Shown: positions 24,638 through 32,185, numbered from the stretch's first letter. The stretch is DNA of 32,240 nt from Nevskiales bacterium (GCA_041630955.1 JBFKKS010000002.1:1-32240); one strand, 5' to 3'. Numbers and translations: made by a program. Notes: generated by a model from the sequence alone, not told the origin.

Positions 24638-27600
24638 CTAGTTGGGAGAGCCCGGGTCTTCAATCTGATACCAGAAAGTACGCTCGGTGCTGCTTGAACC
24701 AATCGGTTTGAATTTGGGCCCGAGTAACACCTGCCCGGGTGGCACGGGTACCGGATCGGTCGGAATGCCCGGGGGCAGCTCATCCGTGGTGACAAAAATG
24801 CGGTCCTGCGCACACAAGCCCTCGTCGTTATTGCAGCTGCCATCATTGGACTCATCATTGTTAAAGGCAGCCCCACCGTTATCCAGGCGCACTGCATAGG
24901 CCAGTCCGCCACCCTCTTTGGGCAGGCAGGCCCCCGGGTTAGTGCCCGCATTCGGCAGGTAGGTGGTAAAAAAGATGACATCATTGGCAATCAATGGCGA
25001 AGACAGGACTTTCTCACCGTCTGTAATTGCTGTTTCACCCAAACTGAGGAACCAGCCATTGGTCAGATCGGGAGGAGTGCCACCACAAGTGGCTTCCTGC
25101 AGGCAGTTGTTCGTAATATCACCCAGTTCATTTTCACTGAGCTTGATGGGCAATATGCCAGTCGGGTCTACCAGCGTTCCCGTCGAGCTGTCAAAAGCGA
25201 ATCTGTCCTTGATGACGAATAGCTTGTTTTCATCAACATTTTCCTTCGGATAGGCGCGATCACCCGAGCCCAGTACGATATGCCATGTCTGCAGGTCCCC
25301 GCCGAGCTGTGCCACATCAACACCGTGAAAGAAACGCCGGTCTCTGGGGTTGCCGCCGCCATCGTACCGGCCCAGATCGGCCAGTAGCGTAACAGCCCAT
25401 TTATTCCGCAGATCCGAGGTGCTCTCAGGCAGGTCGACACGCCACAACCTGCCACCGGTATCGGGCACATAGGCACGGTCAACCACGCCATTATTATTGG
25501 CATCGATGAGCCCCATTTCGGCCGGAATGCTGTCCTTTAGTTGACTGCTCTCAAAGCGGGTCGCGGTGGGGGCAGCCGGGGCGGCATCGTACACAGCCTT
25601 CCAGATCAGTTGGCCGGTTGCCGCATTCAGGATGTAAAGCGCATTGCCCTCGCTGTCCTGGGTGCCGGGTCCGGGCCGAATGTCTTTATTAACGTCGTAG
25701 CCACCCGCCACGAAGACGGCAGGTACAGCAGCGGCGCCGTACTGGACGTGCCCTATACGTACCGAAGAAAAAGTCAGCCCCAGTTCTTCGGTTTCAGTAC
25801 CCGGGTCGCTGTTCACGGACCACAGCATTTTGGGCACATCCGGGTCACTGATGTCCAGAGAATAGTAGGACTTGCCACCGCGCCGCAGGCCGAAATAGGC
25901 CCATGCCTTGTCTGTTCCGCTGATGGTGCCGTCGTTGCCATCATCCTTGAGGATACTGACGGTACCATCGACACCATAGGGATGCGTTGCTGCAACCTCG
26001 TTTAGAAGCAGGGTTTTTGCACCCCCTAAGGTCTCAAGCGGGAGAAAAGCCCATGCCTCTGAGCCGTCGGGTGTGGCGCTGGGGGTGGAGTTTTTGAACA
26101 TGTGCAGGACGCCATGATTGGTCCCGGTGAGAATGCGTATGTCCTGATTATTCAGCGTATAGGGCCCACGGGCGCCGTAGTTAATGACCTGGGGTCTTGA
26201 ATGCAGGATATCGCCCACCAGCCAGCGGCGAACCTCGGTCACATCACCGTTGATGTTTTCGTCGTTACTGTCCTGGCCGCGCAGCCAGCGCATGATCTTC
26301 AGTGCCTCGTCGACATCGGCTGCGCCCAGCTTTGCCTGCAAGTCGGCGGCTGTGGTGGTATCGCTGCTGTCTGCGTTGAACGGCCTCAGCGCGGTAGGGG
26401 TGCCATTGTTGGGCGCGCTGCCATTGCTGGGGTAGGCCGCCGGTTCGGTGTACATTTTCCTGGCACCGGTGTCATTGTTGTCATCGCCGGGGTTGCCGGA
26501 CAAAAAGCCGGCAATTTGCTGGCCGGCACCACCGCGATTCACGGATCGTCCATCCTTGCCGGAAATTTCGCCTTCATCGAGTATGAAGGGCTCGGTCTCC
26601 GGATCAGTGGGCGCGACGTCCTCGCCATTGGGGTCAGTCCAGTAAGTCAGTGCATCAAACTTGAAGCGGTTGTCTGCTGCGATCGCGCTCAGATCATTGA
26701 CATCAACCAGTTGACTGGTCGACTGGCCGTTGTCTGGATCGACGATTTCTTTTTTGCGCAGACGCTTGATATTGCCACGCCAGTTGGGCTTGTTATCAGG
26801 GTCCAGCTGGAACAGGGCAAAGTACACGTTATCCAGCACTTCGGCACGGTTAAAGGCGTTAACGGGCAGGTTGGCCGATACGAAGGTTGTACTCACACTT
26901 AAAATTTCATTGAGTGTGCTTTTAAGCGCATCGATGACAATCTGCGGGTCATCCGCTTTCAGATTGATGGCGGTACCGGTGCCACCGACGCGAGCAAGCT
27001 CGTTTACTTCATTTTGATTGCTGCCATCAAAGATAAAGTAGGACGTAACGTTCTGTTTTCCTGACAGATCAGGTGTGCCGAGGTCGGGATCAGCCAGGTC
27101 TGTTTTATGCAGAAAATCAATGACGGTTCTGAATTTTTCAGTATCGCTTCGGGGCAGGCTGATATTCATGCCATCCTGGGCCAGAGGCGCTTCTATCTCG
27201 CTGCTTGAGTCCTGACCATCCTGGGAGTTACCAAAGTAGAGATTGATGGTATACAGCTTCGTGCAATCACCGGCGCTGGTCAGTGGGGAGACATAGCGAA
27301 AATCATTGGCACCTGGTGTGCCGACTTCTACCGTAGTAGAGCGGTCAAAGCAGGCTTCGCGGGTTGTTGTATTCGTCTCCCAGCAACGCATCATGTTACT
27401 GCTGTCACTGTTTTTTTCGAAATCATGCCAGCCGTTATGGCCGTTATGGACAAGGCCGCCTAACAGGTAACGGTAGAACTCGTAAAAGAGTTCGACGCCC
27501 TGGTACTTGTGGTCAGCGCAACTGCTGTCAGAGTTGGTGCCGGGGCCACAGGTGGCGGCGGTTTTCTGGCGTTTCAGGGCCAGCAGCTTTCGGTGGAATT

Positions 27601-31700: not shown

Positions 31701-32185
31701 TCAACCGGATCCAGCAACTGGAAGCCCATCAGTATGGTGCCGCCATTGCTCTTTCGGTTGTTGCCGGTGGCATTATGACCGTGACTGGGGCCTTCGGCGT
31801 TTTGCTCATGCTTATGGCTGAACATGAGGCCAATCTTGACGTCGTGAATCTCCTGCAGGACCAGCTTGAGCGCAAGGCGCAGGGCATCAAACAGGGTCAG
31901 CTTTGCTGTACTGGACAGACCCTCAGCAACCGGATCAATGCCTTCATCAACAAAGTACTGCACTGCAGAGCAGTATGGGTCAGCATCGGTGCCGCTACCA
32001 ATCCTGGTACAGGCGTTATATGTACTGTTCAGGTTTGATCGATAATCAAGGCTGAACATGACCAGTGGCACGCCCGAGGCACCACCGCCGGGGTTGGTGT
32101 AGATCTCGGTATCGTCTGCCTTTAAGGCAACACTGGTAAGGCTGATGCCCAGCGCCAGTGTGATCAGCAGTGTTTTAATATTCAT
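28793..32185 (-). CDS. pilY1: PilY1/PilC-family type IV pilus tip-associated adhesin/biogenesis protein, paralogue B
   Basis: About 1130 aa from the ATG at 32185, which has a GGAGGG SD 7 nt upstream. The track's 32227 start is a TTG extension. The signal peptide reads ...LTSVALKA|DDTEIY. The protein is collinear with paralogue A over its whole length. It carries the Ca-loop DANSNGIVD plus an extra acidic DADADGDID loop. Confidence 0.9.
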   Translation of the reverse strand: MNIKTLLITLALGISLTSVALKADDTEIYTNPGGGASGVPLVMFSLDYRSNLNSTYNACTRIGSGTDADPYCSAVQYFVDEGIDPVAEGLSSTAKLTLFDALRLALKLVLQEIHDVKIGLMFSHKHEQNAEGPSHGHNATGNNRKSNGGTILMGFQLLDPVDNTTRENFDNKLRALKSLTPASSNADHSYQGREMFFEFFRYLTGGDVYNGHNGWTDFEQGNSVDRNTNMRCSSADPLLALACWDSSIEIGQTTYKAALDGVSDCTRVYTVNLFFGQSNQTADSDNAIQASRNAGGTGDSSINTDPEMIAFLHGTDLGSFLATDPAGRQNVTSYFLYDGQQQNTVNGYAQAGGTGSGIRIDVPPDVLIDSLITIFNEILSVSATFVSANLPVNSFNRADVLDNVLFALFQLDPDVKPNWSGNVKRLRKQDNVDPNTGETTSLLVDVNGVNAVAADNRFKFDALTYWTDPTGADVVAADATEGEVAGKDGRSVDRGGAGQKIPGFLSGNPGDDNNDTGARKLFTEPDPGDYTNGLPSDSLLAFDADSTDTDTAEDLRADFGVLGVAGDYDADADGDIDDVDHSLSLMRWLRGQDSGNATDRTAVRPWLMGDILHSRPLVINYGSRGGYTQANQDLRIITGTNHGVLHMFRNSNESTGNPDGSETWAFIPRATLGASKVLRLNTVGADHPYGVDGPVSALINDGFDGELSGTDTAWIYFGLRRGGKSYYSLDVSSPDTPKLLWTVDSAPGTGTEELGMTFSPVRIGKVQYGPNAVEAVFVAGGYDANKDASGVIGTDDSEGNAVYILNAETGSVIWKAVYDATPDTPGNTRFESSQLKDSIPAEIGLIDANSNGIVDRAYVPDTGGRLWRIDLPESANSSESIRQKWSMTLLADLGRHVENTAQHDRRFFHGVDVAQLGGDTSTWYIALGSGDRAHPKETTHANGLAVIKDSFTYNATTGTLVAAPGELPIERADLEDITNNCIQEGGCAVAPDLTYGWYLVLGEGAGEKVLSSPLIANDVVFFTTYLPNNGNSGVCLPDEGAGVAYAVRLDNGGAAFDNDQSNNATCSNEEGLCVEDRIFVPVGEMPPGIPSDPVPVPPDKTLIGTKFKSIGASNTERTFWYQIEDVGVPN

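Follow-up and report, generated by a model that had tools for sequence, protein, structure and literature searches.

The 32,240-nucleotide (nt) stretch analysed here, referred to as the window, is a contig of an uncultured gammaproteobacterium, a Nevskiales bacterium (GCA_041630955.1, JBFKKS010000002.1:1-32240) that carries a pilus locus with two large PilY1-family genes. A PilE-type pilin gene stands between the two, which are designated copies A and B and are 655 nt apart in a single locus, and transcription on the minus strand, across positions 24638-32240, follows the order pilX end, B, pilE, spacer, A. An initial annotation of this DNA had described two co-oriented, collinear open reading frames of more than 1100 amino acids (aa) around the pilin gene; its coordinates proved exact, and both the collinearity, by BLASTP, and the family assignment, by Pfam matches, were borne out. 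The genes of the locus are the following.

28793..32185, minus strand: PilY1 copy B, 1130 aa, in the canonical pilX-pilE slot, with a GGAGGG Shine-Dalgarno sequence 5' of its ATG
28270..28767, minus strand: pilE-type minor pilin gene, 165 aa, with a G/FTLIE prepilin cleavage site after a 24-residue leader
28115..28269, minus strand: spacer between pilE and A, 155 nt
24638..28114, minus strand: PilY1 copy A, 1158 aa from ATG, an extra copy between pilE and the convergent thiO
32202..32240, minus strand: 3' end of pilX (last 12 codons and stop), ending in LEGIIVAFPKSL in frame translation
23364..24464, plus strand: thiO (glycine oxidase), convergent, 173 nt beyond A; TIGR02352 at 291 bits, above the cut-off

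The pilX tail lies 16 nt upstream of B and pilE 25 nt downstream of it, and with a B-pilE gap of only 25 nt pilY2 is absent here. The annotated order, pilY1(B), pilE, a 155-nt gap, pilY1(A), with no pilY2, therefore stands, with the gap widening to 164 nt if A begins at a TTG codon. The start of A is probably this TTG, at 28105, which gives a protein of 1155 aa; the codon has an AAGGA Shine-Dalgarno sequence 7 nt upstream and is the start chosen in the public gene calls P0001 and P0123. An exact database look-up of the 1158-aa form of A found no match, and the public gene calls begin at the TTG. The contig stops within pilX, at 32240; fimU-pilW of this genome lie beyond the contig end, and A has only pilE upstream. 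The pilX tail closely resembles the pilX end of contig L085 from a relative, O (ending in VLEGVIIAFPKPL before the stop), with the same type of junction between Shine-Dalgarno sequence and ATG after both, and pilX_L2 matches L085 at the position of the pilX tail. On the other side, the pilus locus ends at thiO.

Three more assemblies also contain the 3' part of B together with pilE, A and thiO, with 99.5-99.6% nt identity to the window across the junctions. These are L001 (GCA_041622695.1), L109 (GCA_041632175.1) and L108 (Logan run SRR29257500), such that the four-assembly set consists of two metagenome-assembled genomes (MAGs) from NCBI, one Logan run and the window. All four assemblies break in B or just upstream of it, at window positions 29820, 29825, 30214 and 32240, and on the other side of B they are continuous for at least 13 kb. 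The breaks at B suggest strain-level heterogeneity in the B head and the minor-pilin genes of the sampled populations.

Membership of the PilY1 family is supported by several profile and structure comparisons. PF05567 (PilY1 beta-propeller; IPR008707) matches A at 53.4 bits and B at 70.8 bits, against a gathering cut-off of 28.1, and a profile built from A, B and relatives finds the PilY1 of Pseudomonas aeruginosa (PDB 3HX6) with E = 2.6e-22. A nine-residue predicted calcium loop (D-x-N-x-D/N-x-V-x-D) is kept in both copies.

29621..29647, minus strand: calcium-binding loop of B, DANSNGIVD, aligned to the 3HX6 loop DNNSDGVAD
25478..25504, minus strand: calcium-binding loop of A, DANNNGVVD, aligned to the same 3HX6 loop

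In the AlphaFold2 model of A (predicted local distance difference test, pLDDT, 79.6; predicted template modelling score, pTM, 0.79), an N-domain of alpha/beta type is joined by a beta-rich linker to a propeller, and the best PDB match of the model by Foldseek is again 3HX6 (E = 3e-17, target template modelling score 0.58). The N-domain modelled alone (pLDDT 85, pTM 0.89) matches von Willebrand factor A (vWA) folds only, and weakly (best E = 3.4e-4), among them PitA, Ku, TFIIH p44, BatB, vWF A1 and integrin I domains. The position of its metal-ion-dependent adhesion site (MIDAS) reads D-x-R-x-N, which is non-canonical, and the domain has no Pfam match at E up to 10. By eye, both N-termini show basic, hydrophobic and A-x-A-like regions ahead of a conserved ADDT(D/E)IY, with signal peptides read as MNIKTLLITLALGISLTSVALKA/DD and ...LLTSLVFGLGLFTAALQA/DD. 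A predicted Sec signal peptide, of the signal peptidase I (SPI) type, and the large size of both proteins (1158 and 1130 aa) would fit the PilY1/PilC family of ~110-125 kDa. The NCBIfam model NF040838 (PilC_Neiss equivalog) scores 32.9 and 31.9 bits versus a cut-off of 350, and the kinship to Neisseria-type PilC is at the superfamily level only.

The product of the middle gene matches PF07963 (N_methyl) and PF16732 (ComP_DUS), both above their cut-offs, and carries the G/FTLIE motif; it is 79% identical to the PilE of contig L084, also from O, and 70% to that of L110. Its leader (window 28696-28767, minus strand) is unusually long, at 24 residues, and appears genuine, given that the start M-D/N-A-I-T-R is conserved in L084.

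Both A and B end in ERTFWYQIED..PN, which fits the family consensus RTFWY..ED, and they agree at 10 of their last 12 positions. The C-terminal ~10-12 residues of PilC/PilY1 in Neisseria and Acinetobacter complete the beta-sheet of a PilK-family minor pilin, which licenses assembly and anchors the adhesin (bioRxiv 10.64898/2026.09.18.752573; PMC13533445).

28796..28831, minus strand: plug strand of B, FWYQIEDVGVPN, with the family-wide RTFWY..ED motif
24641..24676, minus strand: plug strand of A, FWYQIEDPGSPN, with pLDDT below 50 for residues 1146-1158 of the monomer model

The disorder of the last 13 residues in the monomer model of A is as described for PilC. The only differences among the four assemblies in the final 50 codons of A are at three synonymous sites.

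The spacer between pilE and A opens, immediately beyond the pilE stop, with a 7-bp hairpin that lacks a proper U-tract. The spacer also holds a GC-rich hairpin and a perfect TTGACA hexamer without an acceptable -10 element; its fold z-score is -2.1. Separate regulation of A, as put forward in the initial annotation, is not supported, there being no clear promoter or terminator in the spacer, and for the same reason any statement about regulation is weak. The spacer has the highest density of single-nucleotide polymorphisms in the locus, with five of the eight non-coding differences among the four assemblies. The starts of A and B are each preceded by a similar stretch, CTAT(T)GACGG, that is too short for interpretation, and no homopolymer of at least 8 nt occurs in A, B or their leaders.

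Divergence and descent of the two copies

The proteins A and B share 697 of 1177 residues (59%) in a BLASTP alignment of 1283 bits that is collinear end to end, and all eight peptide blocks quoted as identical in the initial annotation are present in both. The many third-codon differences noted there are equally evident in the codon alignment, which has 64% nt identity overall and 43% at third positions; only 47% of the identical amino acids are encoded by the same codon. Identical nt runs are short, as had been estimated by eye, but the estimate of 10-15 nt is exceeded by the longest, of 18 nt. The proportion of differing synonymous sites (pS) is 0.74, such that the synonymous distance (dS) is saturated at about 3, with a non-synonymous distance (dN) of 0.30 and a dN/dS of about 0.1. 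The divergence is thus ancient, as the annotation had it.

Neither copy contains an internal stop, and the absence of frameshifts and premature stops extends to the four assemblies. Among these, A shows 14 synonymous and 6 non-synonymous differences, and the covered 3' part of B shows 11 synonymous and 4 non-synonymous differences. The saturated dS versus low dN and the mostly synonymous polymorphism point to purifying selection on long and short time scales, that is, both between the paralogues and within the population, in keeping with the earlier view that both copies are kept by selection. A recent duplication or gene conversion was considered and rejected, given that every 100-codon window has a pS of at least 0.61 and that the longest common run is 18 nt. 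The annotation had argued against an assembly artefact, a recent duplication and a gene-conversion pair, and the agreement of four assemblies and the lack of long identical DNA uphold it. The G+C content at third codon positions (GC3) of the two genes is 0.645 and 0.688, compared with 0.58-0.68 in neighbouring genes. There is thus no sign of a recent foreign origin of A or B, the composition being host-like, and any transfer would be old.

In wider databases, A and B are mutual best matches (59%), the next best proteins reaching 42-45%, and a second protein search gave no closer B-like orthologue above 45% except A. The most informative relative, O, is represented by two OJGP01 metagenome contigs, L085 with pilW-pilX and the N-terminal half of PilY1, and L084 with the C-terminal half, pilE and a convergent thiO. 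The start of L084 and the end of L085 are Nextera adapter-derived sequence, translated GSEMCIRDS and VSYTHLRAHETRHDL, and one PilY1 gene is split over the two contigs. This single PilY1 of O occupies the pilX-pilE slot; its C-terminal half is 77% identical to A and 67% to B, and its N-terminal half 63% and 56%, respectively. A neighbour-joining (NJ) tree with 22 outgroups groups A, B and O as a clade, within which A and O are sisters in 200 of 200 bootstraps. The mean distance to the 22 outgroups is 0.430 for A and 0.429 for B, and since the two copies are equally far from the outgroups, the grouping of A with O is no rate artefact. Comparisons of the window with O are also saturated at synonymous sites.

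A simple lineage-specific duplication with one fast copy was rejected, because A and B are equidistant from the outgroups and the single gene of the relative is sister to A. The description of A and B as a tandem duplicate pair consequently fails in its simple sense, with the head of B coming from another lineage, as set out below. The trees suggest that the backbones of A and B split before this lineage parted from a relative that has an A-like gene only. Two origins are considered for the present state. An old duplication may have been followed by loss of the B-type copy in O, which would need an extra rearrangement, given that in O the A-like gene precedes pilE and that the PilE of O (79%) seems to be the orthologue of the one in the window. 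Alternatively, one copy may have been acquired from a related lineage.

The difference between A and B is not evenly spread. Identity is about 46% in the N-domain, about 72% in the middle and about 71% in the propeller, and the difference is concentrated in one block of some 210-230 residues, at positions 125-352 of A and 121-330 of B, with ~43% identity inside and ~71% elsewhere. The two versions of this block are referred to as head cassettes, and they are compared here with O and with the PilY1 proteins P0003, P0004, P0125 and P0126.

31196..31825, minus strand: head cassette of B, of P0003/P0126 type, forming the vWA-like domain core (residues 121-330)
27059..27742, minus strand: head cassette of A, residues 125-352, of A/O type, with two Cys-Cys loops

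By BLAST, the B cassette is 56% identical to P0003, 53% to P0126 and 50% to P0004, compared with only 41% to A, and the A cassette has its best match in O (54%), compared with only 42% in B. Outside the block, B is about 70% identical to A and O, compared with about 45% to P0003. Site patterns flip at the block edges (37:8 inside versus 34:210 outside, Fisher p = 2e-19), and NJ bootstraps join B to P0003 in 90% for the N-domain and A, B and O in 100% for the other two partitions. The identity of B and P0003 in the block is 0.57-0.59, equal to that of P0003 and P0126 (0.58), yet their propellers are only 45% identical. Cysteine patterns differ in parallel. One Cys-Cys loop of the A/O head lies in a 10-residue insertion (C189/C199) found only in A and O, absent from B and 67 outgroups, and a family Cys pair kept in 66 of 67 others is missing only from B and P0003, with C149 replaced by lysine in both. 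Faster evolution of the A/O head is not supported as the cause of the likeness between B and P0003, as the block distances to distant outgroups are similar (O 0.424, A 0.384, B 0.397, P0003 0.398).

These patterns show B to be a mosaic, with a head cassette that would have been acquired by recombination with another PilY1 lineage. Head exchange seems to recur in the A/B/O clade, since P0125, a 1200-aa PilY1 from L110 (Logan SRR30410435), has a propeller 51-56% identical to those of A, B and O, while its N-terminal 350 residues are only 24-37% identical to theirs and amount to a third, unrelated head type on a related scaffold. Three head types, A/O, B/P0003/P0126 and P0125, are thus found on closely related backbones. 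A literature search for PilY1 mosaics returned nothing specific.

Distribution of the layout and related systems

The survey of related genomes for a pilY1-pilE-pilY1 arrangement, suggested with the initial annotation, covered 82 related loci from species-representative genomes, out of at least 426 related genomic loci, and 53 of them were informative, with at least 3 kb after pilE. A PilY1 gene directly after pilE was found in 0 of the 53, and the layout is thus rare. The nearest relatives (L002, L111, L110 and O) have one PilY1, then pilE, then thiO or ispH, and the full operon in relatives reads fimU-pilVWX-pilY1-pilE followed by thiO. The thiO gene lies between ispH and the pilus locus here and in L002, L084 and L110; in L111, pilE adjoins ispH directly. 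A tblastn search around A (E up to 10) returned no remnants of pilX, of a second pilE or of any other minor pilin. To date, only this species shows the direct pilY1-pilE-pilY1 order, and a literature search for it returned nothing specific.

A second PilY1 as such is less unusual. In 16 of the 82 loci, a far more divergent PilY1 (about 190-290 bits) with its own pilE lies 3.6-5 kb off, as part of a whole second minor-pilin module, and there are three more cases among metagenome loci. Loci of this kind (L005, L012, L014, L020, L024, L026, L035, L037, L039, L040, L043, L045, L049, L054 and L064; also L091, L092 and L102) include many Woeseiaceae-like and other gammaproteobacterial ones, in which the second PilY1 is usually convergent, sometimes tandem, with room for minor pilins. 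The MAG GCA_975200385.1 has two complete fimU-pilVWX-pilY1-pilE modules on separate contigs, L002 and L111, one adjoining thiO-ispH and the other ispH directly, whose PilY1 proteins P0003 and P0126 are 55% identical; these are either two loci of one genome or the product of a mixed bin.

Among known systems, the closest likeness is to Neisseria PilC1/PilC2 (also Kingella PilC1/PilC2), in which two large tip-adhesin paralogues serve one pilus with one minor-pilin set, a sharing that would also apply here. As in Neisseria, the N-terminal halves are divergent, the C-terminal propellers are conserved and the C-terminal plug is shared. In N. meningitidis, identity between the two PilC proteins is 54% over the N-termini, 93% over the C-termini and complete over the last 12 residues; the corresponding values for A and B are about 46%, about 71% and 10 of 12. 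The C-terminal halves are thus much more diverged than in Neisseria, which argues that A and B have not been homogenised recently. Further differences are that the Neisseria PilC genes are unlinked, whereas A and B flank pilE in one locus, that the slipped-strand phase variation of Neisseria has no counterpart homopolymer tract here, and that the Neisseria head was matched to a lectin-like fold, whereas the N-domain here is vWA-like by weak matches.

The locus resembles the P. aeruginosa operon fimU-pilVWXY1Y2E in its pilX-pilY1-pilE order, propeller, calcium loop (DxNxNxVxD here, DxNxDxVxD there) and, by weak matches, a vWA-like N-domain. In contrast to the single PilY1 and the pilY2 of P. 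aeruginosa, there is a second PilY1 after pilE, no pilY2, and a thiO gene between the locus and ispH. Genomes with several PilY1 paralogues of different roles are also known from Myxococcus xanthus and Xylella fastidiosa. The multiple PilY1 genes of myxobacteria evolved by duplication and horizontal acquisition, and the three of Xylella have different phenotypes. In the cases considered, such paralogues are mostly accompanied by minor-pilin sets of their own, located in separate clusters or regions (four minor pilins per PilY1 in the Myxococcus type), whereas copy A has none and only pilE and the 155-nt spacer separate it from B. In Acinetobacter baumannii ComC, a conserved vWA scaffold carries lineage-specific insertions in a cassette that has been repeatedly replaced, described as an 'interchangeable tool head'. 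The variation between A and B is of the same sub-domain kind, except that the ComC variants are alleles in different strains and the two types here stand side by side in one genome.

The principle is therefore already established in Neisseria, Kingella, Xylella, Myxococcus and Acinetobacter, and the locus is no new system class. The novelty claimed in the initial annotation is overstated: genomes with multiple PilY1/PilC paralogues, variable at the N-terminus and conserved at the C-terminus, are well documented, 16 of 82 loci have a second module, and rarity is confined to the direct pilY1-pilE-pilY1 order. What is modestly new is the gene order and the coexistence, in one locus, of two head-cassette types on near-identical scaffolds.

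Readings of the two-copy locus

The reading that we favour, with somewhat more confidence than doubt, is that A and B are working PilY1-family proteins of one type IVa pilus system, and that their heads would be alternatives. Judged from the sequence, it is reasonable to see the pair as alternative tip proteins of one machine, because both copies keep the parts needed on the pilus tip. By analogy with Neisseria and Acinetobacter, the plug strand would complete the PilK/PilX beta-sheet, priming assembly and anchoring the adhesin. Given that one pilX is seen beside the genes and that the plug core is the same, either A or B could bind to one and the same tip complex of minor pilins. Pili could then be capped with one of two heads, for different adhesion or surface sensing, which would be the logic of Neisseria PilC1/PilC2 placed within one locus. 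B would probably be co-transcribed with the minor pilins, and A, after pilE and the weak hairpin, would probably be read through at a lower or conditional level; that this read-through comes from the minor-pilin operon with some attenuation is only a guess.

Several points count against this reading. The contig ends in pilX, such that the minor-pilin genes are out of sight, and the genome may hold a second minor-pilin set elsewhere, as relatives often do. P0003 has the plug core TFWYQIED as well, and the sharing of this core by A and B is consequently no proof of a common partner. The putative vWA assignment of the N-domain rests on weak Foldseek scores (best E = 3e-4). The phylogenies are NJ trees on corrected distances, not likelihood trees, and the signal joining A and O in the propeller is a plurality of sites only (12 versus 7 and 2, with nearest-outgroup rooting). 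A promoter and terminator scan of the spacer at 28115-28269 gave nothing above shuffled expectation.

The alternatives differ in what they make of the second copy. A and B might do the same tip job, redundantly or under different conditions, with a head difference that has no ligand meaning. This would be parallel to the PilY1 sets of Myxococcus, which work at different calcium or EPS conditions; condition-dependent use of PilY1 paralogues is documented for M. xanthus, and both copies here keep every conserved feature. The difference, however, sits in one exposed cassette with different disulfide loops rather than being evenly spread, and each cassette type is conserved in other species, such that we consider a redundant or condition-split pair unlikely. 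It is improbable that A is part of a different filament, paired with minor pilins of a second set from another place in the genome, and adjoins this locus by position only. Complete second modules of minor pilins, PilY1 and pilE within about 5 kb in 16 of 82 related loci, plus further cases, give this idea some footing, as does the fact that this contig is the only part of the genome seen. Yet in these relatives the second PilY1 is always accompanied by minor pilins of its own and has diverged far more strongly (about 190-290 versus 1283 bits), and A, from about residue 340 onwards, shares ~70% of its residues with B and has the same plug core.

That plug strand also bears on whether A has left the pilus tip altogether, for a pilus-independent role, such as adhesion at the cell surface or after secretion, or an input to signalling of the kind proposed for P. 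aeruginosa PilY1. The lack of minor-pilin genes directly upstream of A and a position after pilE that is unique among about 60 related loci would fit such a departure, but the strand, which has no known use except PilK/PilX docking, is intact and under purifying selection, and we hold the idea to be very improbable. An artefact, with the two genes as alleles of two organisms joined by mis-assembly or a mixed metagenomic bin, is given practically no weight: the source is evidently a metagenome-assembled contig and all four assemblies break in or just upstream of B, but four separate assemblies with identical B-3'/pilE/A/thiO junctions at 99.5-99.6% identity speak against it, and assemblers cannot confuse A and B at 64% nt identity with a longest common run of 18 nt.

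The reading of two tip proteins for one pilus can be carried further, to a cis-linked two-head system in which one operon and one minor-pilin set would serve two docking-compatible PilY1 scaffolds, vWA head cores would move as cassettes between lineages independently of the propeller, the weak hairpin would set the head ratio and single cells would bear mixed pilus tips. In this extended form the proposal is speculative, and we think it quite unlikely to be right in all its parts. If both proteins cap the same pilus, the locus would be a compact natural case of widening the grip or sensing of a pilus without duplicating the assembly machinery. The variable part would be a sub-domain cassette inside the vWA head, exchangeable between lineages, and A and B would give a defined pair for head swaps on PilY1 ligand specificity and mechanosensing.

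Other genes of the window

The remainder of the window encodes der, a WYL regulator, a HIRAN protein, xseA, guaB, guaA, an MMPL transporter, modABC, rplU, rpmA and obg, as well as proB, murJ, ribF, ileS, lspA and ispH. The group ileS-lspA-ispH is also the neighbourhood of the P. aeruginosa minor-pilin operon. Rfam and tRNA scans of the window returned nothing. Between der and xseA, at 1232-2673 on the plus strand, a WYL-domain helix-turn-helix regulator (HTH_11-WYL-WCX) is followed by a small HIRAN-domain protein with a weak match to the PADLOC candidate family PDC-M03B, and the two may form a DNA-damage or defence-related pair. A 169-aa open reading frame at 7524-8033 on the plus strand, between guaA and the MMPL transporter gene and overlapping the predicted start of the latter, has a weak dCTPase-like PADLOC match (E = 1.4e-9) and is a candidate gene only.

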